64,000 bases of DNA from Prevotella sp. (GCA_017618275.1 JAFZUS010000111.1:39573-103572); one strand, 5' to 3'; positions 2,364 to 33,222 are shown, counted from the first letter of the stretch. A program made the numbers and translations. Notes: generated by a model not told the origin, from the sequence alone.

Positions 2364-5303
2364 ATGAAAAAGAATACTACCAAATGCAAAGTCATTAGAA
2401 TGACCATTCTTGCCATTGTGTCATTATTAGTCGTTATTGGCCCTACATATTATATAAGAAATGTAAAAGGGTCTGTTCCAACAACGCGTTTGGAATCCTT
2501 CCTGAATCAAAGCCTCCCCAAACCCATAAAAACACATATAGCCAACAAGGAACTGAAGACAGGCGAAGTAGATGAAAATCTAAAACGCATCGATGATGTG
2601 CTAATCGGACTTGACAAAATAAACTTACAGACTTCTCCTGGTGCAAATCAGTTGCGGCTTTTTCTTGAAAAGCCTTGGGCGATGGATTACTTGTTTATCG
2701 CATCCGTTGTTTGCCTATTCTTTATTTTTATCATTTCTATTTGGAGGACATTCCGACGGAAACTATATAACAAATGGTATTGGATAATGATACCGCTCAT
2801 AGTCCTACTGGCTTTTTTGGACATCTCGCACCACCTTGATGATGCGTCTAAGAATCAGGTTGACGACTTCTTTGTCTTTATTTGTTTCCTAAGTATTGGC
2901 GTAGCAGTCATCGCTATTGTTCAGATGCTCATTAAATTCTTAGATAAAAAATTCAGTAGTCAGATTCGTCTAGTGCGGAGGGAACATCGTCAGAATACAT
3001 TGTTGTGGGCTGCCATTGCCGGTTGGTCATTAGCCTACCTGTGCTTTTTCATAGGTATGTATGCGGCAGGAACGCAGAAGTCGGCACTTGCAGCCATTTT
3101 CCGTCCTGCCCTGTCTGCTTGCAAGATGTTTTTCCTTGCCGACAGCCCAGCCGATTTCTCTGCAGCATTGCGTCTGAGTGGAGGCTTTATGGGTTTCTAT
3201 ACCATTGTCAAGATTATTGTTTTAACCATTACCACCTCGACTCTGATTTCACTCATTTTTTATAGATGGAAGGCCTCTTTGGATATAAATTTTGAGCATG
3301 CAGAAGGGAAAAAACTCTATGTATTCTTTGGTATTACAAGGGTCGCACGAATCTTGGCAAAGGATATCCGAGCAAAAGAAGAAGAATCTGTTATTGTATT
3401 TGTAGAAAACCGCGAAGAAAAATCTAACCTATTCAATTCCGTTTCTTTTAGTAGCGTCTTGGGATTACTGCGCCATAGAGGTGGGGCTTATGAGATTGCT
3501 GATGAAGTTGATGCTCATCTCATTATTAGTAATGTCATGATGAGCAGTCCGGAATGCAGTGAGTTGCTTTCCAAAGACGCTCCCACATCAATACAGTTGA
3601 TGATGAATAATCTGGGATTGAAGCATTTTTATTGTTTGGCAAAAGATGCCAAAGAGACACATTGCTTCTTTATGTATGATGACCAAAATATCAATATCAG
3701 TGGCTCTTACAACCTTCGCAAGTTTTTGAACAAGTCATTTTATGATTCTGATAAGAAATTCAAGATTCATTGTTGGGCAAGGCCGAGTGCCAAGACTCAG
3801 ATGCTAGAGATTCCTGAAGAAGAAACGTCTGTGTGGCTGTACCAAAAGACTATTAAAGAAAAAGTCATTCAATGTTATCATCGTCTTTCAGAATATTTAC
3901 AAACTTTGTATAAAAAATTATGTTGTCCAAAACAAAAAGACCACAAACAGGAACAGAAAGTGGTGAGTTCACCCAAATATGATACAGAAATAGAAATCCT
4001 TGATAGTTCACATTTGTCCGTACAGTTGCTTATGCAGAATCCAGAATGTCATCCAATACGCTTTGTGGATGTAGACACTGATACTGCAACTGTTAAAAAC
4101 CGGTTTGAGGCATTAATCATCGGCTTTGGTGAGACAGGCCAGGATACCCTTAAGTTCCTTTATGAATTTGGAGCATTTATGCACCACGAGTGTTCTGAAA
4201 ATGATTCAGAAGAAACGGCAAGAACTGCAATCACTGTTCGTTCTCCTTTTCATTGTGATGTGATAGATAGTAATATGAGTATGTTAAAGGCAGAGTTCAT
4301 GCATAATGCCCCAGCTGTAGCCAATGCGTTTAATATGCAGAAAAAAAGTGGCAAGTGGAAACCCAATTTAGAAGATCCGCTTGTGTCGTTTCATCAGGCA
4401 AAATACAACAGCCAAGAGTTTATTGACCTTATAGAAGAACGTATCACGAAAGTCAATTATATTGTTTTGGCATTAGGTAGTGACGAATTAAACCTCACGG
4501 TACTCAATGACTTGATGGAAATCGCTGTCAGAAAACGTGAAAAGGGCTATTTGGGAGAACTTACGATTTTTGTCCGCAGTTATCTGTATAGCAATAATGA
4601 AGCTATGAAACAAATGGCATCTTATTACAACAATTTGGGATACGGTGATGAAAATATTAAACGTATAAAGCGTGAACATGTAATCATCTTTGGCGAGGAA
4701 CACCAACTGTTTTCCTTTAAGAACATCATTAGGGATGAAATTGTATCTCATGCAAAAGAATACTTTAGAAGATATGAAGAACTGCGGACAAATAAGGAGA
4801 AAAATAAAGACATATGGGATAAACGCCATAATAACTATAAAATTTTGTCATGGGAAATAAGAAAGAAAGTAAAGCGTCAGGAACAGCAGGACATAAATAA
4901 TTCCCTACATGCAAAGACAAAGTATCGACTCATATCCAATCACGATATTCCTGTCTTGTTTAAGGAAATTGCTGATGCTATTATTTTTGAAGAAGGTGGT
5001 AAACCCATACAATTTAGTACAAGCGATATAGCCATAAAAAGAATATGTACGAACCTAGCACGTACGGAACATTTGCGTTGGAATGCCTCACATGAAATGT
5101 CAGGTTATATTATGAACGAGAGTACTGGTTGCAATGAAATGAACAAGACCCATAATTGTTTGGTTCCGTGGGAAATTCTACCTAAGGTTACAAGTACTCA
5201 CAACAAAGCAGAAGACCAAAAGAAACCTGAAGAAGAAAAATACTATGTAGACTATCAGGCCTACGACTATCTGGTGGTAAAAACTACGTTTGATTATGTT
5301 TGA
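2364..5303 (+). CDS. Polytopic membrane protein with two Rossmann-like (TrkA-N/RCK-like) modules and a C-terminal RyR-like domain
   Basis: About six hydrophobic helices in aa 10-300 (LFIASVVCLFFIFIISIW, WIMIPLIVLLAFL, FFVFICFLSIGVAVIAIVQMLI, LLWAAIAGWSLAYLCFFIGMYAA, YTIVKIIVLTITTSTLISLIFY). Glycine-loop segments LYVFFGITRVARILAKD and ALIIGFGETGQDTLKFL. The C-terminus (nt ~5040-5300), ARTEHLRWNASHEMSGY..KTHNCLVPWEILP..EEEKYY, aligns by eye with the two stand-alone RyR-domain genes downstream. Confidence 0.7.
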   Translation: MKKNTTKCKVIRMTILAIVSLLVVIGPTYYIRNVKGSVPTTRLESFLNQSLPKPIKTHIANKELKTGEVDENLKRIDDVLIGLDKINLQTSPGANQLRLFLEKPWAMDYLFIASVVCLFFIFIISIWRTFRRKLYNKWYWIMIPLIVLLAFLDISHHLDDASKNQVDDFFVFICFLSIGVAVIAIVQMLIKFLDKKFSSQIRLVRREHRQNTLLWAAIAGWSLAYLCFFIGMYAAGTQKSALAAIFRPALSACKMFFLADSPADFSAALRLSGGFMGFYTIVKIIVLTITTSTLISLIFYRWKASLDINFEHAEGKKLYVFFGITRVARILAKDIRAKEEESVIVFVENREEKSNLFNSVSFSSVLGLLRHRGGAYEIADEVDAHLIISNVMMSSPECSELLSKDAPTSIQLMMNNLGLKHFYCLAKDAKETHCFFMYDDQNINISGSYNLRKFLNKSFYDSDKKFKIHCWARPSAKTQMLEIPEEETSVWLYQKTIKEKVIQCYHRLSEYLQTLYKKLCCPKQKDHKQEQKVVSSPKYDTEIEILDSSHLSVQLLMQNPECHPIRFVDVDTDTATVKNRFEALIIGFGETGQDTLKFLYEFGAFMHHECSENDSEETARTAITVRSPFHCDVIDSNMSMLKAEFMHNAPAVANAFNMQKKSGKWKPNLEDPLVSFHQAKYNSQEFIDLIEERITKVNYIVLALGSDELNLTVLNDLMEIAVRKREKGYLGELTIFVRSYLYSNNEAMKQMASYYNNLGYGDENIKRIKREHVIIFGEEHQLFSFKNIIRDEIVSHAKEYFRRYEELRTNKEKNKDIWDKRHNNYKILSWEIRKKVKRQEQQDINNSLHAKTKYRLISNHDIPVLFKEIADAIIFEEGGKPIQFSTSDIAIKRICTNLARTEHLRWNASHEMSGYIMNESTGCNEMNKTHNCLVPWEILPKVTSTHNKAEDQKKPEEEKYYVDYQAYDYLVVKTTFDYV

Positions 5304-5393: not shown

Positions 5394-8300
5394 ATGACAA
5401 GTCGTAAAAATGATCGCTTTGAAAGAAATCTCATTGAAAATCGTGAGGTGCGTATATTCTTGTCCTCAACTTTTTCAGACATGGACCCAGAGCGTTCAGC
5501 GCTAGTAAAGGTATTCAACCAACTAAAGTTAAAGGCCAATCGTCGCAATGTTGGTCTTTCGTTACTTGATCTACGTTGGGGGGTAACTGATGAAGAGGCG
5601 CGAACAGGAAAAGTGCTTTCCGTTTGCTTGAATGAGATTGAGAACTCTCATCCGTTTTTCATTGGTCTACTAGGTAGTCGTTATGGTTATTCTCCTGATG
5701 CTATGGAAATTGAGAGGAATCCGGAACTGAAGGAACGGTATCCATGGCTCTCTCAAGATATTGAGCAAGGGTTGAGTATTACGGAGATGGAGATGCAGTA
5801 TGGAGCACTGCGAAATGAAAAGGGTGTTGAAGCTGCCTTTTTTATCAAGCATATCCCTAATATGCAACCTGATGATAATGAAAAACTAACTAAGCTGAAA
5901 AAAAAGATACGCGAACAGCATCGTTTCCCTGTGGCCGATTATTGCTCAATTGACGATCTTTGCCTGCAAGTTGAAAAAGTTGTAGATGGTTTGTTGGACA
6001 AGTATTTCAAAGAAGCCGATGAAACTCGTCATGGATGTATGCGGAATATCCAGCGCGCTTTTATGAATAGTCGACACAAACTCTATATACCTAGAAAAGA
6101 GGACTTTGAGCGCTTAAATCAATTCCTTAACAGTAAGGAACAATATCTTTTAGTGACAGGTCAAAGTGGTATAGGGAAAAGTGCATTAATCGCTAACTGG
6201 CTGAAAGAGCTAGAATGTAAAAAACACAAGCAACCTTGTAACATTATATACCACTTTTTAGGAAACACGTTCGGCAGTAACTCCTACGAGGAAGTGCTAC
6301 TTCATATCTGTGATGAGTTAGTCTCTCAACACTATTGTCGTGAAACCATTTTGGAAGATTATGAAAGTCTGGAAGATAGAGTTCAAAGATATATGTCGAT
6401 AGCTGTTAAGAAGGGTAAGCCTATCTTAGTTGTAATCGATGGCGTTAATCAGATATCAAATTATAATCAAAGTTTTCCTTTCGACTGGTTACCACAGCCA
6501 CATCCAAAGATAAAATATCTTTTTTCTTCAGTTGAGGATGACGAAATAACAAAGGCCTTCCATTACCATAAATACCCAATATATGTCTTAAAACCGTTTA
6601 ACATCGATCAGAAATATGAATTTATCTCAGAGTATCTTTCTCTTGTAGGTAAAAAACTCAATGAGGGCCAATATAATCGTATTATACATAGTCCAATAAC
6701 AAATAACGCATTGGTATTAAGGTCACTACTTGACGAACTCATTTGTTTTGGATCTTATGAATACCTTGATGACCGAATTAATTATTATATCTCATCCAAT
6801 TCTGTAGCAGATTTTTTTGACCGCATTCTACAACGAATGGAAAAGGATTATGAGGGTGCACAACTTCTGTTAGCCGTACTCTCTGTTTCAGAACATGGAC
6901 TGTCAGAGAATGAACTTGTAGGGATTACAGGCATTAGTAATATTAATTTTCATATGTTCTATTGTGCATATACTACTCATATAACCAATTGTCGTGGATT
7001 ATATAATTTCTCTCACCAATATTTTAAATATGCGGTAATGTCTCGATATCTGAAAGACCAGTTAAGTACTGAATTATATCGTAAAAAGATAATTCGATTT
7101 TTCTCTGAGAACAAAGATATCAGTTATAGTCGTAGAATGCCAGAACTTGCTTTTCAATATTATTCACTGAAGGATTTGAAGAGTCTATACGGCATCGTCT
7201 TGAATGATTATGCTTTCATGACTTTCTGTTCTACGACAGAAGGTAAAAGCCAATTGGCTCTATATTGGAAAGAATTGAAAGAGTCAGATCCAACCAAATA
7301 TCATTTCTCTGACTATTTAAATCTTTCTCATAAGATGAGTTTTTTTAGGAGAAGACCCTATTTGGAGATGGCCTCCTTCTTTTGTGAGTTTTTTACAGAT
7401 TACAAGACATCATTGAAATACGCTAAAGAATATCTTGCAATTGAAAAATCGGAAAAAGGGCAAGACTGGGATCGCATTGCGAAAGGACTTGTCCGGATTG
7501 GAATATATTACAAAGAACTACATAACTATGAGAAAGCTTTAGAAAATTTCTTTAAATTATTAAAAGACTATGAAAAAATTGTATTATACGATATTCATAC
7601 AATATACGAAGAAATGGATGATAATGATTTCTTTATGGAAGAAGAACTTCAGGATTATATTCTTGATTCGTATATCAATATTGGAGAAATATATTATTTA
7701 CAAGACAATATTAATAAAGCACAAGAATTTTTCCTTAAAGCATTAAAAGTTAGCAAGAGGATTTTTTTTGATAAGAATCATCCGTGGATTGCGTCTTGTT
7801 GTTGTTATGTCGGTAGGACACATGAAATAATGGGGAACTGTGATAAGGCAATCAGGAACTATCATAAAGCTCTTAGTATTTTTAAGAAACTATATGGTGA
7901 TTTTCATATAGAAACTGCTAATTGCTATTTTAGAACAGGCAAAACTTATGCACTTCAGAAAAACTATGATAAAGCTTTACTATACTACTTTAAAGTTGTT
8001 GATATATACAAACTTATCTATGGAAATAGCAATGCCCAAATTGCTAATTGTTATTTTTCTATTGGTAGCGTTTATGAATGTCGAAAAAACTACGATGAGG
8101 CTTTAGATTACTATTTAAGAGCTTTGGAACTCCGTAAAAAGACGGTAGGTAATAAGCATATAGCTACCGCTGTCACCTACACTCATATTGGTTATATATA
8201 TGAAAAAACTAATGAATATACAAAAGCTCTTGAGAGCCATATTAACGCCTTAAATTTTTATAAAATAAAATATGGAATCAATCACATAAAAACAGCTTAT

Positions 8301-9344
8301 TGCTATAATGACATTGGCAGAGTTTACAAATGCCTCGAAGAATATGAAAAAGCATTGAAATACTATTTTATGGATTTGAAGATTCGTATAGAAGAGTATG
8401 GAAATAACCATCTAGAGATAGCCGTATGCTATAATGACATTGGAGCAGTTTATCAAAAAATGAAAGAATTTGATACGGCGTTAGAGTACTATTTTAAAGA
8501 TTTATCAATCTCTGAAAACGTTGTTGGCTCGAATCTTATCGAAACTGCTATCTCCTATAGCGATATCGGAGAAACCTATAAATCTAAAGGGATGCCTCAA
8601 AAAGCGTTAGAATATTTTATCAAGGCTAAGGTGACTTACGAGTCTGTTCTTGGGACATGTCATCTTACTACAGCCGACACCTATAATGAAATTGCTGAGA
8701 TATTTACCAGCCTAGATGATTATTCACATGCGCTAGAATACCACTTAAAGTCTTTGGACGTATTTCAAAAAGTATATGGCATGGATCATTCTATAACAGC
8801 AGATGCATACAATGATGTTGGTTGGGACTATTTGCAACTAGAAGAATATGGCCAAGCTTTAGATTTCTATTTTAAGGCTTTGGCTTTTCATGAAAAGATG
8901 CAAGGTAAGGAACACGTTGAAACTGCAAATACCTATTACTATATCGCTTATATCTATGATGAATTGGATAATTATTCTATGGCGCTAGAATATAATATAA
9001 AGGTCTTGGATATATACAAGATAGTCTATGGCGATTATAGTACTAATACAGCTGATGCATATAGGGAAGTCGGGTGGGATTACTTGCAACTAGAAGTATT
9101 AGACAAATCTCTTGAGTATTTTTCTCAAGCGTTAGCTATACGTTTGAGAGAAATGGGCCAAAAGCATTCTGATACGGCTGAATCATATAAGGACATCGCT
9201 TTAGTTTATTTACGCCAAGGTGAATTACAACAAGCAATTGATTCATATTCTAATGCTTTAGTTATTGCTGAAAAGGTATTGGGAGAAAACCATCCGAATA
9301 CAATAGAAATAAGAAAGATGATAAAAGAATTATGTTCACATTAG
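5394..9344 (+). CDS. STAND NTPase: DUF4062-like (TIR-like fold) N-domain + NACHT-type P-loop + long TPR array
   Basis: The N-terminus VRIFLSSTFSDMDPERSALV...FFIGLLGSRYGYSP looks DUF4062-like. Walker A is LLVTGQSGIGKSALIANWL (nt ~6157-6186) and Walker B-like is PILVVIDGVNQ (nt ~6421-6450). The C-terminal ~600 aa are regular 42-aa kinesin-light-chain-type TPR units (...A.CY..IG.VY....(E/N)Y(D/E)KAL.YY.KAL.I..). Confidence 0.85.
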   Translation: MTSRKNDRFERNLIENREVRIFLSSTFSDMDPERSALVKVFNQLKLKANRRNVGLSLLDLRWGVTDEEARTGKVLSVCLNEIENSHPFFIGLLGSRYGYSPDAMEIERNPELKERYPWLSQDIEQGLSITEMEMQYGALRNEKGVEAAFFIKHIPNMQPDDNEKLTKLKKKIREQHRFPVADYCSIDDLCLQVEKVVDGLLDKYFKEADETRHGCMRNIQRAFMNSRHKLYIPRKEDFERLNQFLNSKEQYLLVTGQSGIGKSALIANWLKELECKKHKQPCNIIYHFLGNTFGSNSYEEVLLHICDELVSQHYCRETILEDYESLEDRVQRYMSIAVKKGKPILVVIDGVNQISNYNQSFPFDWLPQPHPKIKYLFSSVEDDEITKAFHYHKYPIYVLKPFNIDQKYEFISEYLSLVGKKLNEGQYNRIIHSPITNNALVLRSLLDELICFGSYEYLDDRINYYISSNSVADFFDRILQRMEKDYEGAQLLLAVLSVSEHGLSENELVGITGISNINFHMFYCAYTTHITNCRGLYNFSHQYFKYAVMSRYLKDQLSTELYRKKIIRFFSENKDISYSRRMPELAFQYYSLKDLKSLYGIVLNDYAFMTFCSTTEGKSQLALYWKELKESDPTKYHFSDYLNLSHKMSFFRRRPYLEMASFFCEFFTDYKTSLKYAKEYLAIEKSEKGQDWDRIAKGLVRIGIYYKELHNYEKALENFFKLLKDYEKIVLYDIHTIYEEMDDNDFFMEEELQDYILDSYINIGEIYYLQDNINKAQEFFLKALKVSKRIFFDKNHPWIASCCCYVGRTHEIMGNCDKAIRNYHKALSIFKKLYGDFHIETANCYFRTGKTYALQKNYDKALLYYFKVVDIYKLIYGNSNAQIANCYFSIGSVYECRKNYDEALDYYLRALELRKKTVGNKHIATAVTYTHIGYIYEKTNEYTKALESHINALNFYKIKYGINHIKTAYCYNDIGRVYKCLEEYEKALKYYFMDLKIRIEEYGNNHLEIAVCYNDIGAVYQKMKEFDTALEYYFKDLSISENVVGSNLIETAISYSDIGETYKSKGMPQKALEYFIKAKVTYESVLGTCHLTTADTYNEIAEIFTSLDDYSHALEYHLKSLDVFQKVYGMDHSITADAYNDVGWDYLQLEEYGQALDFYFKALAFHEKMQGKEHVETANTYYYIAYIYDELDNYSMALEYNIKVLDIYKIVYGDYSTNTADAYREVGWDYLQLEVLDKSLEYFSQALAIRLREMGQKHSDTAESYKDIALVYLRQGELQQAIDSYSNALVIAEKVLGENHPNTIEIRKMIKELCSH

Positions 9345-9378: not shown

Positions 9379-9693
9379 ATGAATCAGGAGATATACACCC
9401 CGCAGCCCATTGACACCAGCGATGTTGAGCTGCCAAAGGAACTGGAGGCACTGGTGGAACAGATGTCGAAGAACGTACATGATGTTTGGGCGGAGACTCG
9501 CATCAAACAAGGATGGAAGTATGGATCAGAACGAAACGACGAGCTGAAGACGTATCCTTGTCTGATTCCATACGAGGAACTGCCTGAGGAAGAGAAGGAG
9601 TACGATCGCAATACCTGCATCGGCACGCTTAAGCTCATCATGAAATTGGGATTTGATATTTCAAAAGCGCAAAATAAAACTCAACAAGTATGA
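9379..9693 (+). CDS. Stand-alone RyR (ryanodine-receptor repeat, PF02026-type) domain protein, copy A
   Basis: HDVWAETRIKQGWKYG..RNDELKTYPCLIPYEELPEEEKEYDRNT matches my recollection of the RyR-domain signature. The stop overlaps the next gene's start (ATGA at 9690-9693). Confidence 0.85.
   Translation: MNQEIYTPQPIDTSDVELPKELEALVEQMSKNVHDVWAETRIKQGWKYGSERNDELKTYPCLIPYEELPEEEKEYDRNTCIGTLKLIMKLGFDISKAQNKTQQV
9394..9665 (+). repeat. Direct repeat copy A (RyR gene body), ungapped and highly similar to 11982-12253
   Basis: The copies lie 2588 nt apart and read colinearly without indels (tacaccccgcagcccat(t/c)gacaccagcgatgt...gtttgggcggagactcgcatcaaacaaggatgga...). Confidence 0.85.
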
Positions 9694-11942
9694 AAATTGA
9701 TAAAAAAGGATTCAAAGCGGAGATTGAGAAACAGAATGCCAGAGGAAATCTGGATGTTTTTATCAGCTACAGGAGCAAAGAAGTTGACTTTGTTACAAGA
9801 CTTTATGAGGAATTCAAAAACAACTTCGTAAATGCATGGTTTGACAAGGCAATACTTCATGAAAATGCAGGAAAGTATTATCCAGAAATCATACATGAAG
9901 GAATTCGAAATTCGAAGTTTTTTCTCCTGATATACACAGAGAGTATTGCCGAATCAGAATTTATTATAAAGCAGGAACTTGAATACGCAATAAGCCAAGG
10001 GAAAACTATTTTATGCTATCCTAAGGAAACCCCAGACTTTAACAAGATGGAGAAAAACCTTAAGAAGCAACTTGAATCTATCCAATGGCTTGCTAACAAG
10101 GAAAGTAGTAAAGATATTGACGCATATAGAAAGGAGATTGAAGAGGAACGGAAGCGTGTCATTATGGCAAAAACCGTAAATGACTCGCCCGAGAAGTATT
10201 CTGTCTATGAAGATGAGAATCTCTTTCTGATTCGCATTGAGATCCAGCGCCTTTTAAAGAAACTGACACCTTACGGCAACTACCAAACAATAAGCAAGGC
10301 AGATCCTGTTTACGATTGGGACAATATTCAACTAAGAATATGGCCTAAGACTTTTTACATAAAAATACCAGAAACTAAATACAAAGACCTAGAAAAGGGA
10401 GGATTCTTTAAAACAGCCAAAGAGGATTCAAAGAAAAAGGAAAAAGCTATTGACGATTACTTTGACAAGATAAAAAACATCCATAAAATAGAGGAAAACG
10501 AAATACTGGAATATCTAAAAAATTTCATTAATTCCTATGACCACAAGAAGCTTTATAATTGGATGCTTCAAAATAGGTCTGAATACATGAAACCATACAC
10601 AGAAGAAGCGTTCTCAGCTGACGACTTCATCAAAGTTATGGCAATGATAACTAGTGACGCTTTTATCAAGCAATTGGGAGCTAAGCAGGTGATGTTTAAT
10701 GGTGCAATGACAGGTCTGTATGGGGTGACAGATAACCGTACGAAGAATAGTGAAAGTCACTATTTGACTATGGATATGTATTTTACTAACTATTTTACCT
10801 TTAAGTGTATGGTGGAGACGTACCATACCCTAAGGTCAATAGAAGACAAATTTGAAAAAATCAAGACAACAAACATACGAAAATATTCACCATTTTTAAG
10901 TTCTTTGGGATTGGGAGGTTTTGTCGTTATTAACCAAGATTACAATTTGCATTTAATGTGGACATATAGGAGCGGAAAGATTTCGTCTGGCGATATGTGG
11001 CATTTCTCGTTTGATGAGACATCCAATATTTTGAAGGATTGTTTCCACGATAAGCATGGGAATTTTGTTCTTGATGAAGATTTCTGTCTGCTTATTGATA
11101 TGAAATCATATTTTATGCGAGCATTGAGAGAGGAAATTGGATTATCACCTGATGACATTTCTTTCCGTCAAGGTGTAACAGAGCTTGGAATTATCAAGAG
11201 TGAAAGATTAGAGGCAGAACTATTATCCTACTGTGTAGTAGATCTGCCGGCACAACCTTCTATCGTAGAGCAAATGGCTAAATTTCGAAACATTGCCCCC
11301 GACAGCTATCTTGAAACGGAGGAAATAGAAATTATACCATTGCAAGAAACCGCAAAAAAAATGACAGGTAGATTGTTGACTCCAGAATCCGTAAGTCTGT
11401 CATCGTTCGTTGAAAAAATAATGGATCAAATGGACAAGGAAAATCGTGGAATCAATATTGCTCCGACAGCAAAAATAGGTATTGAGACTAAGATTGGAAA
11501 GAATTGTATCATAGAAGATTATAGCTATATAGGCTCAAAATGTAGCATAGGTGATGAGTGTAAGATTCATCGAAATGTCTTTATCGACAATAATGTAGTA
11601 ATTGGTAATCGTGTCAAAATTCAGAACAATAATAGTATCTACGAAGGAGTTACATTGGAAGACGGTACTTTTATTGGAACTAACGTGACCTTTATCAATG
11701 ACCGACATCCCAGAGCTATATTAAAAGATGGGAAACAGGTTGGACCTGGTGATTGGGAAAGGGGATATACTCGAGTTCGTTATGGTGCGTCATTAGGGGC
11801 AGGTTCTGTTATTATGTGTGGAGTTACCATTGGCAAGTGGGCAATGGTGGCCGCAGGCTCTGTTGTCCTTGAAGATGTTCCTGATGGCGCGTTGGTTGCT
11901 GGTAATCCAGCAAGGATAATAAAAACGGACATTCCTTATTAG
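9690..11942 (+). CDS. TIR-domain protein fused to an uncharacterised middle region and a C-terminal left-handed beta-helix (hexapeptide) acyltransferase domain
   Basis: N-terminus LDVFISYRSKEVDFVTRLYEEF...FFLLIYTESIAESEFIIKQELEYA looks like a TIR domain. The C-terminal ~170 aa carry hexapeptide repeats (IGKNCIIEDYSYIGSKCSIGDECKIHRNVFIDNNVVIGNRVKIQNNNSIYEGVTLEDGTFIGTNVTFINDRHPRA...VIMCGVTIGKWAMVAAGSVVLEDVPDGALVAGNPARII), resembling nucleotide-sugar N-acetyltransferases. I could not assign the middle ~400 aa. Confidence 0.8.
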   Translation: MKIDKKGFKAEIEKQNARGNLDVFISYRSKEVDFVTRLYEEFKNNFVNAWFDKAILHENAGKYYPEIIHEGIRNSKFFLLIYTESIAESEFIIKQELEYAISQGKTILCYPKETPDFNKMEKNLKKQLESIQWLANKESSKDIDAYRKEIEEERKRVIMAKTVNDSPEKYSVYEDENLFLIRIEIQRLLKKLTPYGNYQTISKADPVYDWDNIQLRIWPKTFYIKIPETKYKDLEKGGFFKTAKEDSKKKEKAIDDYFDKIKNIHKIEENEILEYLKNFINSYDHKKLYNWMLQNRSEYMKPYTEEAFSADDFIKVMAMITSDAFIKQLGAKQVMFNGAMTGLYGVTDNRTKNSESHYLTMDMYFTNYFTFKCMVETYHTLRSIEDKFEKIKTTNIRKYSPFLSSLGLGGFVVINQDYNLHLMWTYRSGKISSGDMWHFSFDETSNILKDCFHDKHGNFVLDEDFCLLIDMKSYFMRALREEIGLSPDDISFRQGVTELGIIKSERLEAELLSYCVVDLPAQPSIVEQMAKFRNIAPDSYLETEEIEIIPLQETAKKMTGRLLTPESVSLSSFVEKIMDQMDKENRGINIAPTAKIGIETKIGKNCIIEDYSYIGSKCSIGDECKIHRNVFIDNNVVIGNRVKIQNNNSIYEGVTLEDGTFIGTNVTFINDRHPRAILKDGKQVGPGDWERGYTRVRYGASLGAGSVIMCGVTIGKWAMVAAGSVVLEDVPDGALVAGNPARIIKTDIPY

Positions 11943-12351: not shown

Positions 12352-12810
12352 CTACCAAAGGTACTCTTCGACATAGCCACTGAAATTGGGCTCTTCGGTC
12401 CAGCCGCATCTTTTGATGGTATTGCGGACGTATTGCTCCACGTCGGGAGTCATGGGGCGGGTGCCGTTGTGGTATTCATAGTAGCGCTTACGGGAGTAGA
12501 CATTGATGAGATGATGCTTGATGGCGCGCTCGATGCGGCCTGGCATGTTATAATAGATGGTGGAGAGTCCGACGGGCATGCGGACAGGCTCGTCGTTACG
12601 GAACAGGGGACAGTCGGAACGCTGCATCGTGGGGTTGTTGAGGTTGACGCTAAGGACGTAAACCCTGTCGTCCGGCGTATATTTGCTGAGAATGCTATGC
12701 AGACAATGTTCACGGATGGGGCAGGTTGTGCTGTAACAAACCTGATAGTTGTCTGCTTTCTCTCTGAAAATCTCTTCTCTGGTCTTTGGGGTCATACTTT
12801 TCTTTTCCAT
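12352..12810 (-). CDS. Hypothetical protein (152 aa), divergent partner of the VirE-like gene
   Basis: Clean ORF with a TATCTTTG box upstream (complement of 12833-12840). Coding-like composition. I recognise no family with confidence. Confidence 0.6.
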   Translation of the reverse strand: MEKKSMTPKTREEIFREKADNYQVCYSTTCPIREHCLHSILSKYTPDDRVYVLSVNLNNPTMQRSDCPLFRNDEPVRMPVGLSTIYYNMPGRIERAIKHHLINVYSRKRYYEYHNGTRPMTPDVEQYVRNTIKRCGWTEEPNFSGYVEEYLW

Positions 12811-12832
12811 ATCTGATATTGTTATTTGGATG

Positions 12833-12840
12833 CAAAGATA
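12833..12840 (-). promoter_or_regulatory. -7 promoter box (TATCTTTG on the minus strand)
   Basis: caaagata on the plus strand, 23 nt upstream of the start at 12810. Confidence 0.5.
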
Positions 12841-13363
12841 ATAATAATGTGCGACAAAAACAAATTTCTTTCAATAAATATTTCATTTTGTCTATACATT
12901 TATACATTATATGATTATTTTATTATTAATCAGGTAATTACTTAATGAATAGTTCTTAATACTAATTATATACTATACATAATTGTTCAAAAATGAGTCA
13001 CAATAATATACGAAACTGCATTTTATTATCTGGAAATCAATTTGTTCTGTAATTATTACTATATCCGAAACAACTTGTTTCATAGGTAGAAACAATATAT
13101 TTTGTAGATAGAAACAAACTGTTTCCGTCGTTGCAATATAATGTAAACTGACATCTCAATCACCCTAAAGTGATATGAGAAAAGGCCATAAAGACTATCT
13201 CTTGCCACTGCTTATGTATAGATAATAGGATAAATATATAATTATACATCCATTAAATGCTTAATACTCAATAATATATCTTTCAAATGTATAGATGTAT
13301 AGTTATTTTTATATTTTTCCAATGAATTCCTATTATATATTTTGGTAATTCAAGAATAATTTG

Positions 13364-13371
13364 TAATTTTG
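13364..13371 (+). promoter_or_regulatory. -7 promoter box (TAATTTTG)
   Basis: 32 nt upstream of the ATG at 13403. Confidence 0.5.
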
Positions 13372-13402
13372 CAGTCGAATTTCATAAAGGCAACATAGAA
13401 GT

Positions 13403-15553
13403 ATGAATAAAGTTACCATCGTAAAACAATATCGGAATACCCAAACGCTCAGGCAGATGGATCTCTCTGAGGTCGTGCAGGCTATTCAGAATCAGGCATA
13501 CGCCGAATTATGTAAGGAACTGCGGTCTGTCTATCCCTTGGTTGAGGTGCGCCAGAAGTATGATACCATGGACGGCCTGTTGTATCTCTATACCAAGGAC
13601 TTGCCCAAGGTCTGCTTCGCATCGCTGATGGAGAACAGGAACAAGCAGCGGCTGACAAGGGCCTACAACGGGCTGGTGCTGCTGGAGGTGAACAACCTCG
13701 CCGCTTTCGATGAGGCTGAGGCTGTCAGAAAAGGTGCCAGTCAGATTCCTCATACCCTTCTGGCCTTCGTCGGAGCCAGCGGTAGGAGCGTGAAGATTGT
13801 ATGTCGGGGGGAACTGTTCAATGGCGGACTGCCTGAAAGTGCCGAGGAAATCGGCGTCTTTCACACCAACCTCTATGAGAAAGCCCGTGTGGCCTATAAC
13901 ATGCAACTCGGTGTGACTATCGAGAAACTGGAACCAACGCTCGACAGAGATTGTTATATCAGTAGTGATCCGAACCTATTTTATAACCCTGGTGCGCAAA
14001 CCTTCTATACCGACTGTTCAGACGTGGACAAGGCCGTGAGACCGGTGACGCTCTACGCAGAGAAACAGGAGAAACTGATGCCTGGCATGGACAACAGCCG
14101 TGCCATGCACCTTATCTATGAGTATTGTCTCTCGAAAGCCTACGATGACACAGCGGGTATCAGTGATGGGGAGGAAAGGACACACCTGATCCTAACGCGA
14201 CTGGCAGGCTACTGTCAGGAGTCGGGGCTCGCGATGGCGGTGGCACAGCGGTTGGCACTGTTCAGTCTGACGCTCGGAAAGGATCCGGACTTAGTGAAAA
14301 AGACGTTTGAGAATGCCTATCGTGAGGAGCATGAGAGGAAATACCGCCAGCGCAAGAACATCACCAAACCGATGAAGCATGTCCCTGCTGAGACATTGCT
14401 GATGATGAAGGTGGATATCTTCCTCAATACCAACTACGAGTTGCGTAAGAATGTGATGAGGGGCGTGGCGGAATATAGGATGCGTACAGGCTACGGTTTC
14501 AGTTATCAGGACTTGACGGAAGAAGCACGCAACTCTATCACGATGCGGGCATTGTCGCAGGGTGTGAAGTGCTGGGACAAGGACATCAACCGTTATGTGA
14601 ACTCCAATGACATTGAACTCTATGAACCGATGACGGACTTCCTGGATCACCTGCCGAAGTGGGACGGCAAGGACCGAGTGGAGCCCCTCGCCCGCCGTGT
14701 CAAGACGGATTTCGAGGAATGGCCATATCTCTTCCATATCTGGATGCGTTCGATGGTGGCCATGTGGCGTGGCAAGGGACAGTTGACAGGCAATGCCCTC
14801 GTACCTATATTAATTGGTCGTCAGGGGTGCGGAAAGACATCCTTCTGTCGGATCCTGTTGCCCAGAGACCAGCGGGATTACTATAATGACCGCATCAACT
14901 TCAAGAACGAGCATGACCTGAACCTCGGACTGACCTCCTTTGCGCTGATCAATCTCGACGAGTTTGATAAGATTACTCAGCGCCAGCAGATCGTATTGAA
15001 GTACCTTGTGTCGACCTCCGATTTAAAATATCGTCCGCCATACGGCAAGGCTTATTCGAACCATCGTAGATATGCCTCATTTATCGGCACCACGAACGAG
15101 AGTACGCCGCTGACGGATCCCAGTGGCAGCCGACGGTTTATCTGTGTCAACGTGGAGGGCGACATCGACTTTGAGACACCGATAGACTACCCGCAACTCT
15201 ATGCCCAACTGGAATACGAGGTGTCGAGACAAAGACTGCGCTACCATCTGACCCGTGACGAGGAGCATATGTTGATGCAGCACAATCTGCGCTACCAGCG
15301 TCTTACCCAACTTGGCGAGCAGTTGCTCTCGCTTTTTGAAAAGCCGGAGGGGACGTCGAAGACCAATCCAGAGGGTGGCCAATGGATGACACTGAAGGAA
15401 ATCTCCGCCCGTTTGAAGAAGGTCTTCAAGGGTGCCTATGCAGAGGATGAGGGTTCCTATATTAAAATAGGTAACTTCCTCAACCGTCCCGAATGTAAGT
15501 TCGAGAGCGACCGCAAGTCCTTCGGCATGGTGTATTGGGTGAAGGAAAGGTAA
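13403..15553 (+). CDS. VirE-like / BT4734-type primase-helicase (P-loop NTPase of mobile elements)
   Basis: The N-terminal region resembles the BT4734/VirE_N primase-like domain. P-loop PILIGRQGCGKTSFCRILLP and Walker B ALINLDEFDK, then the typical C-terminal region (IGTTNE...GSRRF). Confidence 0.75.
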   Translation: MNKVTIVKQYRNTQTLRQMDLSEVVQAIQNQAYAELCKELRSVYPLVEVRQKYDTMDGLLYLYTKDLPKVCFASLMENRNKQRLTRAYNGLVLLEVNNLAAFDEAEAVRKGASQIPHTLLAFVGASGRSVKIVCRGELFNGGLPESAEEIGVFHTNLYEKARVAYNMQLGVTIEKLEPTLDRDCYISSDPNLFYNPGAQTFYTDCSDVDKAVRPVTLYAEKQEKLMPGMDNSRAMHLIYEYCLSKAYDDTAGISDGEERTHLILTRLAGYCQESGLAMAVAQRLALFSLTLGKDPDLVKKTFENAYREEHERKYRQRKNITKPMKHVPAETLLMMKVDIFLNTNYELRKNVMRGVAEYRMRTGYGFSYQDLTEEARNSITMRALSQGVKCWDKDINRYVNSNDIELYEPMTDFLDHLPKWDGKDRVEPLARRVKTDFEEWPYLFHIWMRSMVAMWRGKGQLTGNALVPILIGRQGCGKTSFCRILLPRDQRDYYNDRINFKNEHDLNLGLTSFALINLDEFDKITQRQQIVLKYLVSTSDLKYRPPYGKAYSNHRRYASFIGTTNESTPLTDPSGSRRFICVNVEGDIDFETPIDYPQLYAQLEYEVSRQRLRYHLTRDEEHMLMQHNLRYQRLTQLGEQLLSLFEKPEGTSKTNPEGGQWMTLKEISARLKKVFKGAYAEDEGSYIKIGNFLNRPECKFESDRKSFGMVYWVKER

Positions 15554-15605: not shown

Positions 15606-18158
15606 TCAATGAGCATGTCGGGATTCATCAGTTTGGCTATTAGGATGGGCCAACCAATCCGCCACCTGATCTTCATCGACAAACTCCTCCATCCACAGAC
15701 CACTTTCAATTGGATCAAAGAGAGTTACAACATTGTTTATGGTATTGATAATCCTGTCAATATATGCGCGTGCACTCTTTTCGTACAATTTTATGTACAG
15801 CATAATAGAATCCTTATAACACTCTTCTGCTTGTTTGCTTTTCCCTGCTTTTGCGTATAGGTTGGCAATTGCAAAATAATTCCTTGCAAGATCCGTATTG
15901 AATGCGCCTGCTTCTCCTTTGGTAATGCAATTATAAATATCAATTGCCTGCAAAGAATATATTTCGGCCTTTTCATACTGATTCCAAAAGACATAATGCT
16001 GCGAAAGATTGCTGTATGAAGCAGCAAGGGCAGGCTTCATAGCCGGTTCACGATCAACCAGGCGTTTTCTTATGGCGATTGCTTCTGCATAGTTTACTTC
16101 TGCCTTTTGTTTTTCACCAATTTGAGTGTAAAAAGTACCTGTCACATTATAGGCTTGTGCAAGAGATGGGTCATGCGCTTCTGGATTTTCATCTGCCAAA
16201 ATTTTATGATGACGTAACGATTCCTGAAGCAGCGACTCTATAAAGGATTTGTCGATAGGCCGTTCATAGAAATCGTAGTCTAATGCTCGGTATTCTTCTT
16301 TGTCGTTTGCATACGTTTTATTTTGAATAATAGATTTGATTCGTTCTGCCTCTTGCAAAAACTGGTTGCCGTATGTGGCATCACCATTCTCTTTCCAATA
16401 GAGTCCTAACTTCCTTAATATGCGTTCTAAGAATATATAATAAACTACCGGATTCTTTTGCGTCAGTAATTGTTTTATTTTCATTGCTTGAACATAATAG
16501 CGTTCTGCTTTACAATGGCTGTATACTGCGATATCCAAAAATGCGATTTTATTACATGATTCGGCCAATTCTGCCGTATACCGCTTTTCCCCGTTATTGA
16601 CCAGTTCTGAATATTTAGTATGGGCATCTATAAACAACTTTCTTGCATCTTCGTGGCGGTTAATCATATAATACAATTTACCCAGTTCCAGACTTGTGCG
16701 TGCAATATCTACATCAACGGCTTCAATCGCTTCTGTGTCATATTTTTTGTATAAGGCAAGTGCTTGTATATACAATGCCTCGGCCTCAATGAAACGAGTT
16801 ACCATATAATATACTTTTGCCAATTTTACACTACTTTCAGCGATTAGAATATCCTTTTCTTTTCCCTGCGCAGTACTGGCTTTTCGCAATTCAATCGCTT
16901 TATGCAAAAACGATTCGGCATCTCTGAAGTTGTTTGTGCAATAATATAGTTCACCCTGCAAATCATACAGTTCTGTTTTTTCATGTTCAGATATAGTCTG
17001 GGGATTTTGTGTCAGTGCAGATTGCAACTTAATGCAGACATCCAGGCTTTTCTGATAATTCTGCTGGCGGTAGAGGAATCTGGCAAACTCAAGCATAATC
17101 GCTTTGGGCGCAGTCAGAGTTTCTTCCACCATCGTTGTTGCACGTTCATAGTTCTCCTGAACTTCCTTCCACTTTCCCTGCGCTTCTAAAGATGAAATAC
17201 GCCAGCGAAATTCGTCTATACAGTTTAGTCTTTCCATATACAACATTTCCTCCTTTGCGTTTGTCTGTAAGAAACGTTCTTCAATCTCATCTGGACGCAA
17301 AAGATCTTGTACGCCCTCATAATCACCGCGATCAAATAGTTGTATTGCCTTACGAATACGCTCATTAAGAACAGAACTTGATATTTTTTTAGCAATTGTT
17401 GTTCCCACATTCAGTATTTCATCAGATATCTCTCTAAGATTATCTTGCACCCACAACTTTTCTTTAACAGCCTTTTGATATGCCTTGTATGCTCTTGTGT
17501 TATTTCTGTCTTGTTCGTAGATTTTGAAAAGTTTTGCACAGTTTTCTTCAGCAATTTGGCTTTTTTTTACTAAAACAAGGTATTCGTCATTTTGTGAATA
17601 AGCCGGAATATGTTCAGTTGAAACAACTTTGCGTCCAGATACAGTTACATGTTCATCTTCTACCTTTATTTCCGCACGTAGAAAGCCATGTACCTGAAGT
17701 TGGGTTATGATTCCAAGTTTTAACGAGTCAATATGAGAATATTCTCTATGATAGTGCAATAGTTTCTGATCAATATCTTCCATTACACGACGGACATCAT
17801 CAGAAAGAGATTCTCCCTCTGCTAGGCTCTTAAAATAAACAACAATTTTTGGATTGCTTTTTATTTTGAATTCTTCCAATGCTATGCGCAATTCTTGCTC
17901 TGTGACATCACCGGCTTTATGCCAAAAGACGACAAAGCAAAGATCTGATTCGCGAATTTCGTCATTCAATGATTTTTGTGTCCCGCCATTAATTATTGTA
18001 TGATCCTCTGATTCATCCTCACATTTGTGTAAATGAATAAACAAATTCTGACCATTATAAATATTATTCAATGTATTTATAAAATTACCAATAGACTCGC
18101 GATCATCTTTCAAATCTGTGATGGATGATGCTAGGAATATGTGAATTGTTTTTTTCAT
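15606..18158 (-). CDS. DUF4062-like (TIR-like) N-domain + TPR-repeat protein with no NTPase motif seen
   Basis: The N-terminus IHIFLASSITDLKDDRESIGNFI...IRESDLCFVVFWHKAG parallels the N-domain of the 5394 gene. The C-terminal two thirds are TPR-like (Y..A...Y.KA(I/L)E(L/I)...). I saw no GxxxxGK(S/T). Confidence 0.7.
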   Translation of the reverse strand: MKKTIHIFLASSITDLKDDRESIGNFINTLNNIYNGQNLFIHLHKCEDESEDHTIINGGTQKSLNDEIRESDLCFVVFWHKAGDVTEQELRIALEEFKIKSNPKIVVYFKSLAEGESLSDDVRRVMEDIDQKLLHYHREYSHIDSLKLGIITQLQVHGFLRAEIKVEDEHVTVSGRKVVSTEHIPAYSQNDEYLVLVKKSQIAEENCAKLFKIYEQDRNNTRAYKAYQKAVKEKLWVQDNLREISDEILNVGTTIAKKISSSVLNERIRKAIQLFDRGDYEGVQDLLRPDEIEERFLQTNAKEEMLYMERLNCIDEFRWRISSLEAQGKWKEVQENYERATTMVEETLTAPKAIMLEFARFLYRQQNYQKSLDVCIKLQSALTQNPQTISEHEKTELYDLQGELYYCTNNFRDAESFLHKAIELRKASTAQGKEKDILIAESSVKLAKVYYMVTRFIEAEALYIQALALYKKYDTEAIEAVDVDIARTSLELGKLYYMINRHEDARKLFIDAHTKYSELVNNGEKRYTAELAESCNKIAFLDIAVYSHCKAERYYVQAMKIKQLLTQKNPVVYYIFLERILRKLGLYWKENGDATYGNQFLQEAERIKSIIQNKTYANDKEEYRALDYDFYERPIDKSFIESLLQESLRHHKILADENPEAHDPSLAQAYNVTGTFYTQIGEKQKAEVNYAEAIAIRKRLVDREPAMKPALAASYSNLSQHYVFWNQYEKAEIYSLQAIDIYNCITKGEAGAFNTDLARNYFAIANLYAKAGKSKQAEECYKDSIMLYIKLYEKSARAYIDRIINTINNVVTLFDPIESGLWMEEFVDEDQVADWLAHPNSQTDESRHAH

Positions 18159-18224
18159 TGTTATTTCTTCTTTAAAAACATACAGTAACTTAGTTCACAA
18201 AAAATAAACTCTTGTTTCATTTCG

Positions 18225-18232
18225 CAAAGATA
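18225..18232 (-). promoter_or_regulatory. -7 promoter box (TATCTTTG on the minus strand)
   Basis: caaagata on the plus strand, 67 nt upstream of the start at 18158. Confidence 0.5.
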
Positions 18233-18398
18233 CTAAAAATATAGCATATTAACAATGTTTTTAGGAAAAAGTTTGCGAGAGAACATAAAATAATTGTTAC
18301 CTTCGCACCCGAATATGCATCAAGAGTGCTTCAGTGCACACCAACCGAGCAGACGTTATGCCACGGTGGTAAGAAGATGCGAGTTAAGTGAGTATTAA

Positions 18399-18743
18399 CT
18401 AAAATGATAACGATATGCAATACAACCAATTGTACTTAATGAGCCACATGCCTCCATAGACACTTAACAGACAATGTTTCTCAACATTAAAGAACCGATC
18501 TTTTGTTAAGCGTCCATTTCGATAATAATAGGTCAAAATGAATGTAAGTACTATCATCGGCCCCCATCGGAACATGATTTCTTCGGCCAAGGCCGTAAGG
18601 GGGATCAACAGAAACGAATTTGTAAACTCACTGCTCGAAGCGACATTCTGACTAAACTTGGCACCGCATAGAGCCAATGTGCCGCCAACAACTACCGTCC
18701 ATGAGAAATGAAAAATCCATGTCAACAAGAAAAACTTGATCAC
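18399..18743 (-). CDS. CPBP (CAAX/Abi)-family intramembrane protease-like fragment
   Basis: Hydrophobic 114-aa ORF with a motif-1-like LAEEIMFRWGP (EExxxR). The later FxxxH and HxxxN motifs are not evident, so it may be truncated or degenerate. Confidence 0.4.
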   Translation of the reverse strand: MIKFFLLTWIFHFSWTVVVGGTLALCGAKFSQNVASSSEFTNSFLLIPLTALAEEIMFRWGPMIVLTFILTYYYRNGRLTKDRFFNVEKHCLLSVYGGMWLIKYNWLYCISLSF

Positions 18744-18837
18744 ATTTATCTTTTTTTATTCTCTCAAAGAATCTTTCAATTTTCTCAAAAAACAAATGTG
18801 TCATAATGATGCGACATGAACATCACAAAGTAATAGT

Positions 18838-19062
18838 TTAAATATAAATTACTTTTCTTCCCTGAATGCGTCCTTCGTAAACCTTAGTTCCACCTACATA
18901 AATGGTGCCTTCACCATTATCTTCCGAAAAATGCGCTTCGCCATCATCATTAGTGTACTGGTCGCGGGCAGCCCCACGAAACCATCCATCGAAAATCACA
19001 CTCACTTTCTTGTTTCTTACAGGCTTGCCTGATGAAGCCTCAATGACTTGTACTGTAAACAT
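18838..19062 (-). CDS. Small soluble protein directly downstream of the RHS toxin gene (candidate immunity protein)
   Basis: 74-aa ORF starting 11 nt after the RHS stop on the same strand. The call rests on position only. Confidence 0.5.
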   Translation of the reverse strand: MFTVQVIEASSGKPVRNKKVSVIFDGWFRGAARDQYTNDDGEAHFSEDNGEGTIYVGGTKVYEGRIQGRKVIYI

Positions 19063-19073
19063 ACTTTTGATTA

Positions 19074-28319: not shown

Positions 28320-28382
28320 ATAAAAATAATACTATGATGGCATTTTTTTGCTGTTTTGTGATGGAGTTTAAGAAAAAATGCC

Positions 28383-28390
28383 TATATTTG
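28383..28390 (+). promoter_or_regulatory. -7 promoter box (TATATTTG)
   Basis: 25 nt upstream of the ATG at 28415, which opens a signal peptide. Confidence 0.55.
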
Positions 28391-28414
28391 CAAACAAAAC
28401 CAAACTATAGAAAG

Positions 28415-33190: not shown

Positions 33191-33222
33191 CAAATACGCA
33201 AACATAAAAAACCAACATAGAT

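Follow-up and report, generated by a model that had tools for sequence, protein, structure and literature searches.

A TIR protein with two further enzyme-type modules lies in a five-gene operon

Within a 64,000-nucleotide stretch of a Prevotella sp. genome (GCA_017618275.1, JAFZUS010000111.1:39573-103572; hereafter the window), a single open reading frame (ORF) with an ATG start encodes a 750-amino-acid (aa) protein in which a TIR domain is followed by a middle module that resembles a divergent Nudix enzyme and then by a left-handed beta-helix (LbH) domain of the acetyltransferase type (Table 1). The gene is the fourth of five on the same strand, which are separated by gaps of 90, 34, -4, and 24 bp and encode, in order, a 979-aa membrane protein, a 1316-aa STAND protein, a 104-aa RyR protein, the TIR-Nudix-LbH protein, and a 97-aa RyR protein.

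A three-part layout of TIR domain, unassigned middle, and beta-helix had been proposed in an earlier reading made from the DNA without database searches (the sequence-only reading), and the peptides that it cited (NVTFINDRHPRA, GAGSVIMCGVTIG, AGNPARII, and ALREEIGLS) are all present in the translation of this ORF. Pfam, searches of the PDB, and Foldseek agree with that layout, with Foldseek placing the C terminus among LbH acetyltransferases and the middle with human NUDT22. The description of the C terminus as resembling sugar-nucleotide N-acetyltransferases proved accurate, the best PDB sequence match being WlbB (3mqg, E 2.5e-31), and the recognition of half a Nudix box in ALREEIGLS was borne out by the structural match to NUDT22, by NUDIX matches in distant relatives, and by the motif RALREEIGL.

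Homologues clustered at 90% identity comprise more than 155 full-length clusters (42-87% identity), in which all three parts are conserved, including the entire ~400-aa middle. Because the middle is conserved along its full length in so many clusters, the fusion is not a product of chance. AlphaFold2 modeled the 750-aa protein from a 41-sequence alignment with a mean predicted local distance difference test score (pLDDT) of 86.5 and a predicted template-modeling score of 0.73; a 41-sequence alignment (42-87% identity) also underlies all statements on invariant residues below. The literature that we searched describes no TIR-LbH or TIR-Nudix-LbH protein, in agreement with the remark in the sequence-only reading that no characterized TIR-LbH fusion was known, and neither Kaur et al. 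2020 nor the Aravind-laboratory NAD-ADPr survey mentions RyR or a TIR-Nudix-LbH fusion. The fusion is thus genuine, conserved, and not previously characterized, and its three enzyme-type modules, together with partners of the RyR and RCK types, extend beyond what was first noticed.

Table 1. Features of the operon and of its TIR-Nudix-LbH gene, with positions counted from the first nucleotide of the window.
Feature	Position	Strand	Basis or remark
Membrane protein, 979 aa, ~6 transmembrane helices, tandem RCK-like Rossmann domains, C-terminal RyR-like domain; candidate effector	2364..5303	+	Transmembrane scan, Foldseek, hhalign
RyR-like C-terminal domain of membrane protein, residues ~891-975	5034..5288	+	EHLRW ... 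KTHNCLVPW ... YDYLVVK
DUF4062-NACHT/STAND-TPR protein, 1316 aa, same operon; candidate sensor	5394..9344	+	Pfam
RyR-domain protein, 104 aa	9379..9693	+	Pfam RyR; stop overlaps start of TIR gene by 4 bp
Whole gene, TIR / NUDT22-like Nudix / LbH acetyltransferase	9690..11942	+	ORF, >155 full-length homologues, AlphaFold2 model
TIR domain, residues ~20-135	9747..10094	+	Pfam TIR_2; putative catalytic Glu96, codon 9975-9977
Helical linker, residues 136-195	10095..10274	+	DSSP of model; conserved motif FLIRI.QR
Middle module, residues 196-585, predicted two-part divergent Nudix fold	10275..11444	+	Foldseek NUDT22; Pfam NUDIX in relatives
Split Nudix-box-like element, residues 437-485	10998..11144	+	WHFSFDE443T, ~35-aa insert, R477-A-L-R-E481-E482-I-G484-L
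LbH acetyltransferase domain, residues 586-750, WlbB/FdtD/QdtC-like	11445..11939	+	phmmer against PDB, Foldseek
Second RyR-domain protein, 97 aa	11967..12260	+	Pfam RyR, E 1e-37; starts 24 bp past TIR gene
DUF4062-TPR protein, 850 aa; possibly associated (this window alone)	15606..18158	-	Pfam

Each of the three modules resembles a family of enzymes

The N-terminal assignment is clear from Pfam, in which TIR_2 matches residues 23-135 at E 5e-12 (46.7 bits, against a curated cutoff of 28), and the PDB matches of the family TIR profile are to the enzymatic TIRs Cat1, Roq1, AbTIR, and TIR-1/SARM1. The putative catalytic residue, E96, falls within the alpha-C helix motif S-x-F-I-I-x-x-E-L and is present in every one of the 41 aligned sequences.

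For the middle module, a Foldseek comparison of the model with the PDB returned four chains of human NUDT22 (E 1.3e-7 to 1.5e-6 over 274-283 columns, with entries 5lf9 and 5r50 also represented), the best of which, 5lor_A, matched at E 1.3e-7 and probability 1.00 over 283 columns, with a TM-score normalized to the target of 0.56. LbH acetyltransferases headed the ranking, and NUDT22 was the sole non-LbH fold among the best 50 matches listed. A phmmer search with residues 196-585 against 1.84 billion representatives recovered 117 clusters, and in the distant, mostly ~390-aa members of the middle-module family NUDIX was the only recurring Pfam family (12 of 67), with one protein (P0178) exceeding the curated NUDIX cutoff (21.9 versus 21.1 bits). 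The NUDIX matches of these relatives map to residues 411-508 of the window protein, spanning WHFSFDET and RALREEIGL. Between these two segments the element is split, such that the first box glutamate, E443, sits 35 residues upstream of the second half. Invariant residues of the module comprise W437, H438, D442, E443, R477, E481, E482, and G484, as well as the acidic residues E508, E510, E542, and E566; across the wider Nudix-module family, R282, E286, E287, E248, E313, and E347 (module numbering) are kept.

NUDT22, a UDP-glucose/galactose pyrophosphatase whose structures (PDB 5LOR and 5LF9) were named UDP-glucose pyrophosphatase by their depositors, is an outlier Nudix enzyme that "lacks a conventional NUDIX box" (PMC5688067). 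Its box reads GGHPE158, then 31 residues, then QE189ICDE193, and the module in the window resembles it both in its two-part fold and in having an atypical box with an insert of ~30-35 residues between the first glutamate and the metal-binding helix. The two differ in that they are only 13% identical, in their acidic residues (A478/E481/E482 here versus E189/D192/E193 in NUDT22), and in the fusion of the module here to TIR and LbH domains. The predicted structure, the weak NUDIX matches, and the motif together point to a divergent Nudix fold of the NUDT22 type rather than to a canonical member of the Nudix family.

The C-terminal domain is matched by Pfam Hexapep/LbH over approximately residues 586-745 (E 3e-21). 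Besides WlbB, PDB sequence matches of the C-terminal 155 residues included FdtD (4mzu, E 2.8e-25), a Helicobacter pullorum N-acetyltransferase (7s43, E 1e-21), and QdtC (3fs8, E 1e-11), and identity to these class II LbH enzymes (WlbB, FdtD, QdtC, and H. pullorum 7S3U) is 36-44% over ~155 residues (Foldseek, to 3mqg, 3mqh, 4mzu, and 7s3u; WlbB 44%). The KIQNN...Y and F.N...PR motifs recur in WlbB, as do the coils that bind CoA at the C terminus. N670 aligns with the asparagine of the WlbB FTN motif, which we take to position the sugar amine, and is invariant, as are P674 and R675. Two positions set the domain apart: Asp680 aligns with WlbB Arg94, which presumably touches the carboxylate of the uronic-acid sugar, and His627 is invariant and specific to the TIR-Nudix-LbH family.

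Class II N-acetyltransferases act on a sugar amino group and, their acceptor being an amine, need no protein catalytic base. Unlike the WlbB-type enzymes, the domain described here belongs to a TIR protein and stands outside a sugar pathway, with no sugar-pathway genes around the gene and a defense-type island as its setting, and a hydroxyl or a non-sugar amine may be its acceptor. To our knowledge, the LbH domains of all relatives with solved structures form obligate trimers. We also considered the beta-helix as a mere trimerization scaffold, which is less likely given that split versions of the protein still encode it, in a neighboring gene of its own, and that its WlbB-like motifs for substrate and CoA are conserved. 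Class I LbH acetyltransferases are described in PMC9271549.

The operon encodes RyR proteins and a membrane protein with a RyR-like C terminus

The two small proteins that flank the TIR gene are strong members of the RyR family PF02026 (E 1e-36 to 8e-36 for the 104-aa protein), resemble B. thetaiotaomicron 3NRT and repeat R12 of animal ryanodine receptors, and are ~86% identical to each other (by eye). Phage RyR-domain proteins (RyDEP) were recently reported to cleave the ribose-ribose bond of 2'cADPR and 3'cADPR, which are isomers of cyclic ADP-ribose (cADPR), or to bind these signals with nanomolar affinity; RyDEP uses His75, Trp78, His100, and Asp117, and of eight phage RyR homologues, six bound the signals with no cleavage detected (Lopez Rivera et al., May 2026 preprint, PMC13232231). 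Like RyDEP, the flanking proteins have His, Trp, and Asp at the ligand or catalytic positions, as judged by spacing (H34, W37, and D76 for RyDEP H75, W78, and D117). Unlike RyDEP, they are encoded by the host in an operon with a TIR enzyme rather than serving in phage counter-defense, and one copy has a tyrosine at the equivalent of His100. The upstream protein has Tyr59 there and the downstream one His59, a difference that could separate a binder from a hydrolase.

At the start of the operon, the 979-aa protein has two Rossmann-type (GxGxxG) domains. A Foldseek search with its weak AlphaFold2 model matched Slo1/BK, GsuK, CASTOR/DMI1, and Slo2.2 at E 2e-5 to 2e-3, and UDP-glucose dehydrogenases were matched as well, by way of the Rossmann domains. 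A second membrane-protein family is related to that of the 979-aa protein (hhalign 97.6%, E 5e-12) and is matched by Pfam Slo-like_RCK at E 4e-7. As in RCK-gated K+ channels (Slo1/BK, GsuK, MthK, and CASTOR/DMI1), transmembrane helices are followed by tandem RCK-like Rossmann domains; in contrast to these channels, the membrane protein is without a TVGYG filter and has an extra C-terminal RyR-like domain. Both membrane families end in such a RyR-like segment (EHxRW ... GY ... HPxLxP[YFW]), for which hhalign against the RyR family gave 88-89% and E 2-3e-6 (87.8% and E 3e-6 for the domain of the 979-aa protein). Pfam RyR scored the C terminus of the 979-aa protein itself at E 0.037, below the cutoff, the RyR hidden Markov model (HMM) matched the C terminus of its homologue P0126 at E 9e-6, and in P0128 a canonical RyR domain is fused after the RyR-like domain of the membrane protein.

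With regard to the STAND protein, we considered whether DUF4062 might be a TIR relative that nucleates TIR assembly and discarded the idea, as hhalign of DUF4062 against the family TIR profile was not significant (E 0.31).

The family is found in Bacteroidales, with its domains joined in several orders

The more than 155 clusters all belong to Bacteroidales, and none of them is viral. In GTDB, sampled at one genome per species, the family occurs at 34 loci, and the loci with a Nudix module are almost all from Bacteroidales, namely Bacteroidaceae, Prevotella/Xylanibacter, Alistipes, and gut or rumen metagenome-assembled genomes (MAGs). A phage origin was rejected: IMG/VR and GenBank phages yielded LbH-only matches and neither the full protein nor the middle module.

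Among the fetched proteins, TIR-Nudix-LbH accounted for 122 and the Nudix module alone, mostly with an N-terminal transmembrane helix, for 97; TIR-Nudix was found in seven, TIR-TIR-Nudix-LbH in four, and TIR-Nudix-TIR and Nudix-TIR/SEFIR (P0165) in one each. In five proteins of ~1150 aa (P0047, P0077, P0080, P0082, and P0083) an nSTAND1 domain is fused N-terminally to TIR-Nudix-LbH, and P0018 is a TIR-Nudix-LbH-RyR protein with the RyR domain at residues 740-835. On three complete Bacteroidaceae chromosomes (L029-L031), a separate 200-aa LbH gene lies directly upstream of a 540-aa TIR-Nudix gene, and a separate adjacent beta-helix gene is also present at two further loci (L032 and L033). The occurrence of the beta-helix as a separate adjacent gene constitutes a Rosetta-stone link and argues against a purely covalent scaffold. 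Moreover, TIR and Nudix modules are coupled in several independent orders, and TIR-Nudix is therefore an evolutionarily robust unit. These architectures suggest that the LbH domain is a linked yet separable third part and that the Nudix module is the tighter partner of the TIR domain.

The split version at L032 and L033 is one without a TIR domain. In Bacteroides xylanisolvens XB1A (L032:9854-14992, NC_021017) and B. caecimuris (L033), it consists of a 202-aa LbH gene, a 376-aa gene of unannotated function, and a gene for a 467-aa Nudix-module protein, with three GT2 glycosyltransferases, a MACPF protein, an FAD oxidoreductase, and a second hexapeptide transferase as neighbors, and it may represent a glycan-pathway ancestor of the Nudix-LbH pair. 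The presence of TIR-less Nudix-module genes and separate beta-helix genes among GT2 and MACPF genes in these two species, and the roles of WlbB, FdtD, and QdtC as enzymes of lipopolysaccharide or S-layer sugars, would fit a protein that is not immune at all, with the Nudix-beta-helix part serving as a module of a nucleotide-sugar (surface glycan) pathway and the TIR domain acting only in assembly or regulation. We regard this as very improbable, because the TIR glutamate is invariant, the fused form resides in defense-type islands (with STAND, TIR, RyR, RHS, and mobile-element genes) rather than in glycan loci, and no glycosyltransferases flank the gene in the window.

In other Bacteroidales MAGs (L036:5449-12135, L037, L038, and L040), stand-alone ~410-aa Nudix-module proteins with an N-terminal transmembrane helix are encoded within a conserved gene row that also includes a low-molecular-weight phosphatase-like gene, genes for one protein of 566-583 aa and one of ~387 aa, and genes for other transmembrane-anchored proteins of ~400 aa. 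This row may be a separate, uncharacterized system.

Membrane, RyR, and STAND proteins recur near the fused gene

Across 20 distinct loci, scored for features within 10 kb, a membrane protein of either RCK/RyR-like family accompanies the fused gene in 15 and a canonical RyR protein in 10. The minimal form, at L004, is a three-gene operon of membrane protein (SLO), RyR protein, and TIR-Nudix-LbH protein. STAND proteins recur at six loci (L007, L016, L020, L021, L056, and L058), other TIR fusions (TIR-WD40, TIR-FGE-sulfatase, TIR-methyltransferase, and TIR-WG repeats) also recur among the 20 loci, and WD40 or TIR-WD40 genes accompany the system at L007, L010, and L054.

That sister TIR genes are fused to sensor-like WD40, FGE-sulfatase, WG-repeat, and methyltransferase parts raises the alternative that the Nudix-beta-helix part is itself a sensor. 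Like the non-TIR part of ThsB proteins in Thoeris, it would detect infection, in this case by binding or converting a nucleotide-sugar or acyl-CoA metabolite linked to phage, and would thereby switch on TIR signaling. A sensor is needed somewhere in the minimal three-gene operon, and both domains have relatives that bind nucleotide-sugars. However, the catalytic-type residues E481, E482, R477, and N670 are invariant, and residues of this kind are kept in remote stand-alone Nudix-module proteins, which would be unusual for a mere sensing domain; in addition, STAND-TPR sensors are often present or fused. We therefore consider the sensor alternative quite unlikely.

The operon of the window lies in a low-GC island (GC ~0.37 versus 0.50) that extends over positions ~1-23500, ranges in GC from ~0.31 to 0.46, and also contains WD40, BT4734/VapE primase, DUF4062-TPR, and RHS toxin genes. 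Upstream of the operon, positions 19-1248 encode the last 409 aa of a WD40 beta-propeller protein, which is 852 aa long at L001. Downstream, positions 12352-15553 hold a DUF6078 gene (- strand) and a gene for a BT4734-N/VapE-like primase-helicase, and the presence of the same primase type beside the system at L004 and L056 suggests that a Bacteroidales mobile element carries the module along. Near the edge of the island lies a gene (19074-23471, - strand) for an RHS/YD-repeat toxin of 1465 aa, and two small ORFs (114 and 74 aa) found downstream of the RHS gene at L001 could be immunity genes. Farther along, at 28334-41301, are the genes for two very large surface-type proteins unrelated to the present finding. 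The first, of 1618 aa, combines BspA-type leucine-rich repeats with a dockerin, and the second, 2692 aa long, contains Ig-like, CarboxypepD_reg, and Listeria-Bacteroides repeats.

At other loci, an AAA ATPase (PF00004 with AAA_lid_6), a 322-aa protein lacking annotation, and a gene faintly resembling TerB recur around TIR loci of different lineages (L007:1-2419 and 15749-19826; L054:2735-5514 and 14582-15268; L058:218-3463 and 16685-17374). In a Bacteroidaceae MAG (JAGCDQ010000007; L010:8611-17163), the genes flanking the nSTAND1-TIR-Nudix-LbH gene encode a TIR protein of 459 aa, a TIR domain fused to a methyltransferase, a HAD hydrolase, and an SH3 protein with a (weak) PARP-like part, so that the locus holds several further NAD/ADPR-type enzymes. 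Just downstream of the RCK membrane gene at L058 (13533-16547) are a 449-aa TIR gene, a histidine-phosphatase (His_Phos_1) gene, and a gene for a canonical NUDIX protein of 180 aa, which adds a second, conventional Nudix to the neighborhood.

A Thoeris-like reading of the operon

From the observed domain identities, residue conservation, gene linkage, and fusions, we infer a set of catalytic steps, a signal, an effector role, and an immune function. Our preferred reading, to which we assign a probability of roughly 40%, is a Thoeris-like system in which the fused enzyme makes and tailors a signal derived from ADP-ribose (ADPR) and a channel-like effector reads that signal through its RyR-like domain. 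The system would be a conflict (anti-phage) module of Bacteroidales with the fused enzyme and the channel-like membrane protein as its core; small RyR proteins are frequent extra members, and a STAND-TPR sensor often occurs as well, either separate or fused. By analogy with their relatives, all three modules would be suited to nucleoside-diphosphate-X chemistry, as a TIR domain, a NUDT22-like pyrophosphatase, and a WlbB-like acetyl-CoA-dependent acetyltransferase, and the idea of a modified ADPR-type signal is favored, indirectly, by the flanking RyR genes and by the RCK membrane protein with its RyR-like domain.

In this scheme, oligomerization driven by the STAND protein or by the beta-helix would activate the enzyme, and the TIR domain would then turn NAD+ into ADPR or a cyclic ADPR isomer. 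The Nudix and acetyltransferase modules would tailor the product by pyrophosphate cleavage (for example, of 2'cADPR to a pRib-AMP-like molecule), by acetylation, or by both. The RyR-like domain of the membrane protein would read the product, and the resulting perturbation of the membrane or of ion balance would abort the infection. The free RyR proteins, one of which is translationally coupled to the enzyme, might buffer, degrade, or hand over the signal.

The nearest described system is type X Thoeris, one of the 29 putative Thoeris types in a December 2025 survey of TIR signaling, which pairs a TIR protein with an ion channel, is anti-phage, and uses a signal that is none of the known TIR products (Yirmiya et al., bioRxiv 10.64898/2025.12.03.692087). 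The text and those supplements of the survey that were available to us do not mention RyR, Nudix, or hexapeptide proteins. As in type X, the TIR gene of the window adjoins a channel-like membrane protein, a single candidate effector can have several TIR genes beside it, and the setting is one of defense islands; unlike type X, which uses small ThsB-type TIRs, the system has a TIR_2-type domain fused to Nudix and LbH modules. The expected logic, from NAD+ to a small-molecule signal to an effector, would be that of Thoeris. The operon contains a candidate effector, the RCK membrane protein with a RyR-like domain, and this pairing recurs in 15 of the 20 loci. The candidate receptor domain is RyR-like instead of SLOG, Macro, or another of the known Thoeris sensors, and the free RyR proteins are additional. 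We would thus file the system as a variant of TIR-based (Thoeris-like) signaling rather than as a categorically new one.

Several observations weigh against this reading. PADLOC called no known defense system on the operon, giving a weak SAVED_TIR match to the TIR domain only and none for the partner genes. E96, the invariant candidate for the catalytic glutamate that the sequence-only reading had proposed to look for, lies one residue out of register with the catalytic glutamate of Roq1 and Cat1 in HMM profile alignments. In the middle module, the canonical box GX5EX7REUXEEXGU is absent, with only its second half seen and Ala478 in place of the glutamate of "RE", and Pfam NUDIX matches neither the 750-aa protein nor its middle region. 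A PDB search with two family sequence profiles covering the module returned nothing relevant, and hhalign of the module profile against the NUDT22 sequence (a query 100% identical to 5LOR) was not significant (E 0.09-0.26); the link to NUDT22 therefore rests on predicted structure. The nearest relatives of the beta-helix N-acetylate sugar amines, and because ADPR has no sugar amine, the naming of "acetyl-ADPR" as the specific product is a guess and speculative. As for the effector, the AlphaFold2 model of the 979-aa protein is weak (pLDDT 64.6), with low confidence in the membrane part, and its identification as a K+ channel was rejected, since neither membrane family has a TVGYG-like filter and the protein can be called only channel-like. 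The fusion of a RyR domain to the synthase itself in P0018 is not predicted by a simple scheme of signal and receptor.

Finally, the gene is an orphan among housekeeping genes in 5 of the 20 loci, which implies that it can act alone and thus speaks for a self-contained effector of NAD destruction. In such an effector, the TIR domain would deplete NAD+, the Nudix module would split ADPR into AMP and ribose-5-phosphate, and the acetyltransferase would cap or divert the rest, such that ADPR-based reconstitution of NAD by phage (NARP1) could not rescue the cell and depletion would be irreversible; the RyR and membrane proteins would answer signals of other TIR genes or turn cADPR side-products into ADPR. 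This alternative can draw on ADPR being the classical Nudix substrate, on the use by NARP1 of linear ADPR, fed by phage RyDEP, on the several other TIR proteins that are possible signal makers at L007, L010, and L058, and on the Avs-type appearance of the STAND-TIR-Nudix-LbH fusions, with sensor and effector in one chain. We consider it unlikely, though worth keeping in view, because in the minimal operon of L004 this TIR protein is the only one beside the RyR-bearing membrane protein, because destruction would leave unexplained an acetyltransferase whose closest relatives are amino-sugar enzymes, and because NUDT22-type enzymes are known, as in the molecule name chosen by the depositors, for UDP-hexoses and not for ADPR.

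Implications for TIR signaling in Bacteroidales

The known TIR immune signals (2'/3'cADPR, cADPR, His-ADPR, and N7-cADPR) have been described as products of the TIR protein itself. If, as our preferred Thoeris-like reading holds, the Nudix and LbH modules tailor the product, they would be the first dedicated tailoring enzymes for a TIR signal, and such enzymes could explain Thoeris types that lack an identified signal. A bolder extension, which we regard as rather unlikely, would be a TIR-to-RyR axis in which a new, tailored ADPR-derived messenger from this assembly line, such as a cADPR isomer that is acetylated, cleaved at its pyrophosphate, or both, would gate an RCK-type channel through a RyR-type domain, while the free RyR proteins would set the threshold. 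If true, this axis would amount to a new type of Thoeris, equipped with enzymes that tailor its signal, and at the same time to a prokaryotic counterpart of cADPR-ryanodine-receptor signaling in animals.

The RyR linkage and fusions would carry the finding made with phage RyR proteins and cADPR over to the host side, and the system would offer a bacterial model, directly testable, for the reading of ADPR-derived ligands by RyR-type domains. The family is common in Bacteroidales of the human and ruminant gut, in which defense systems are poorly charted.

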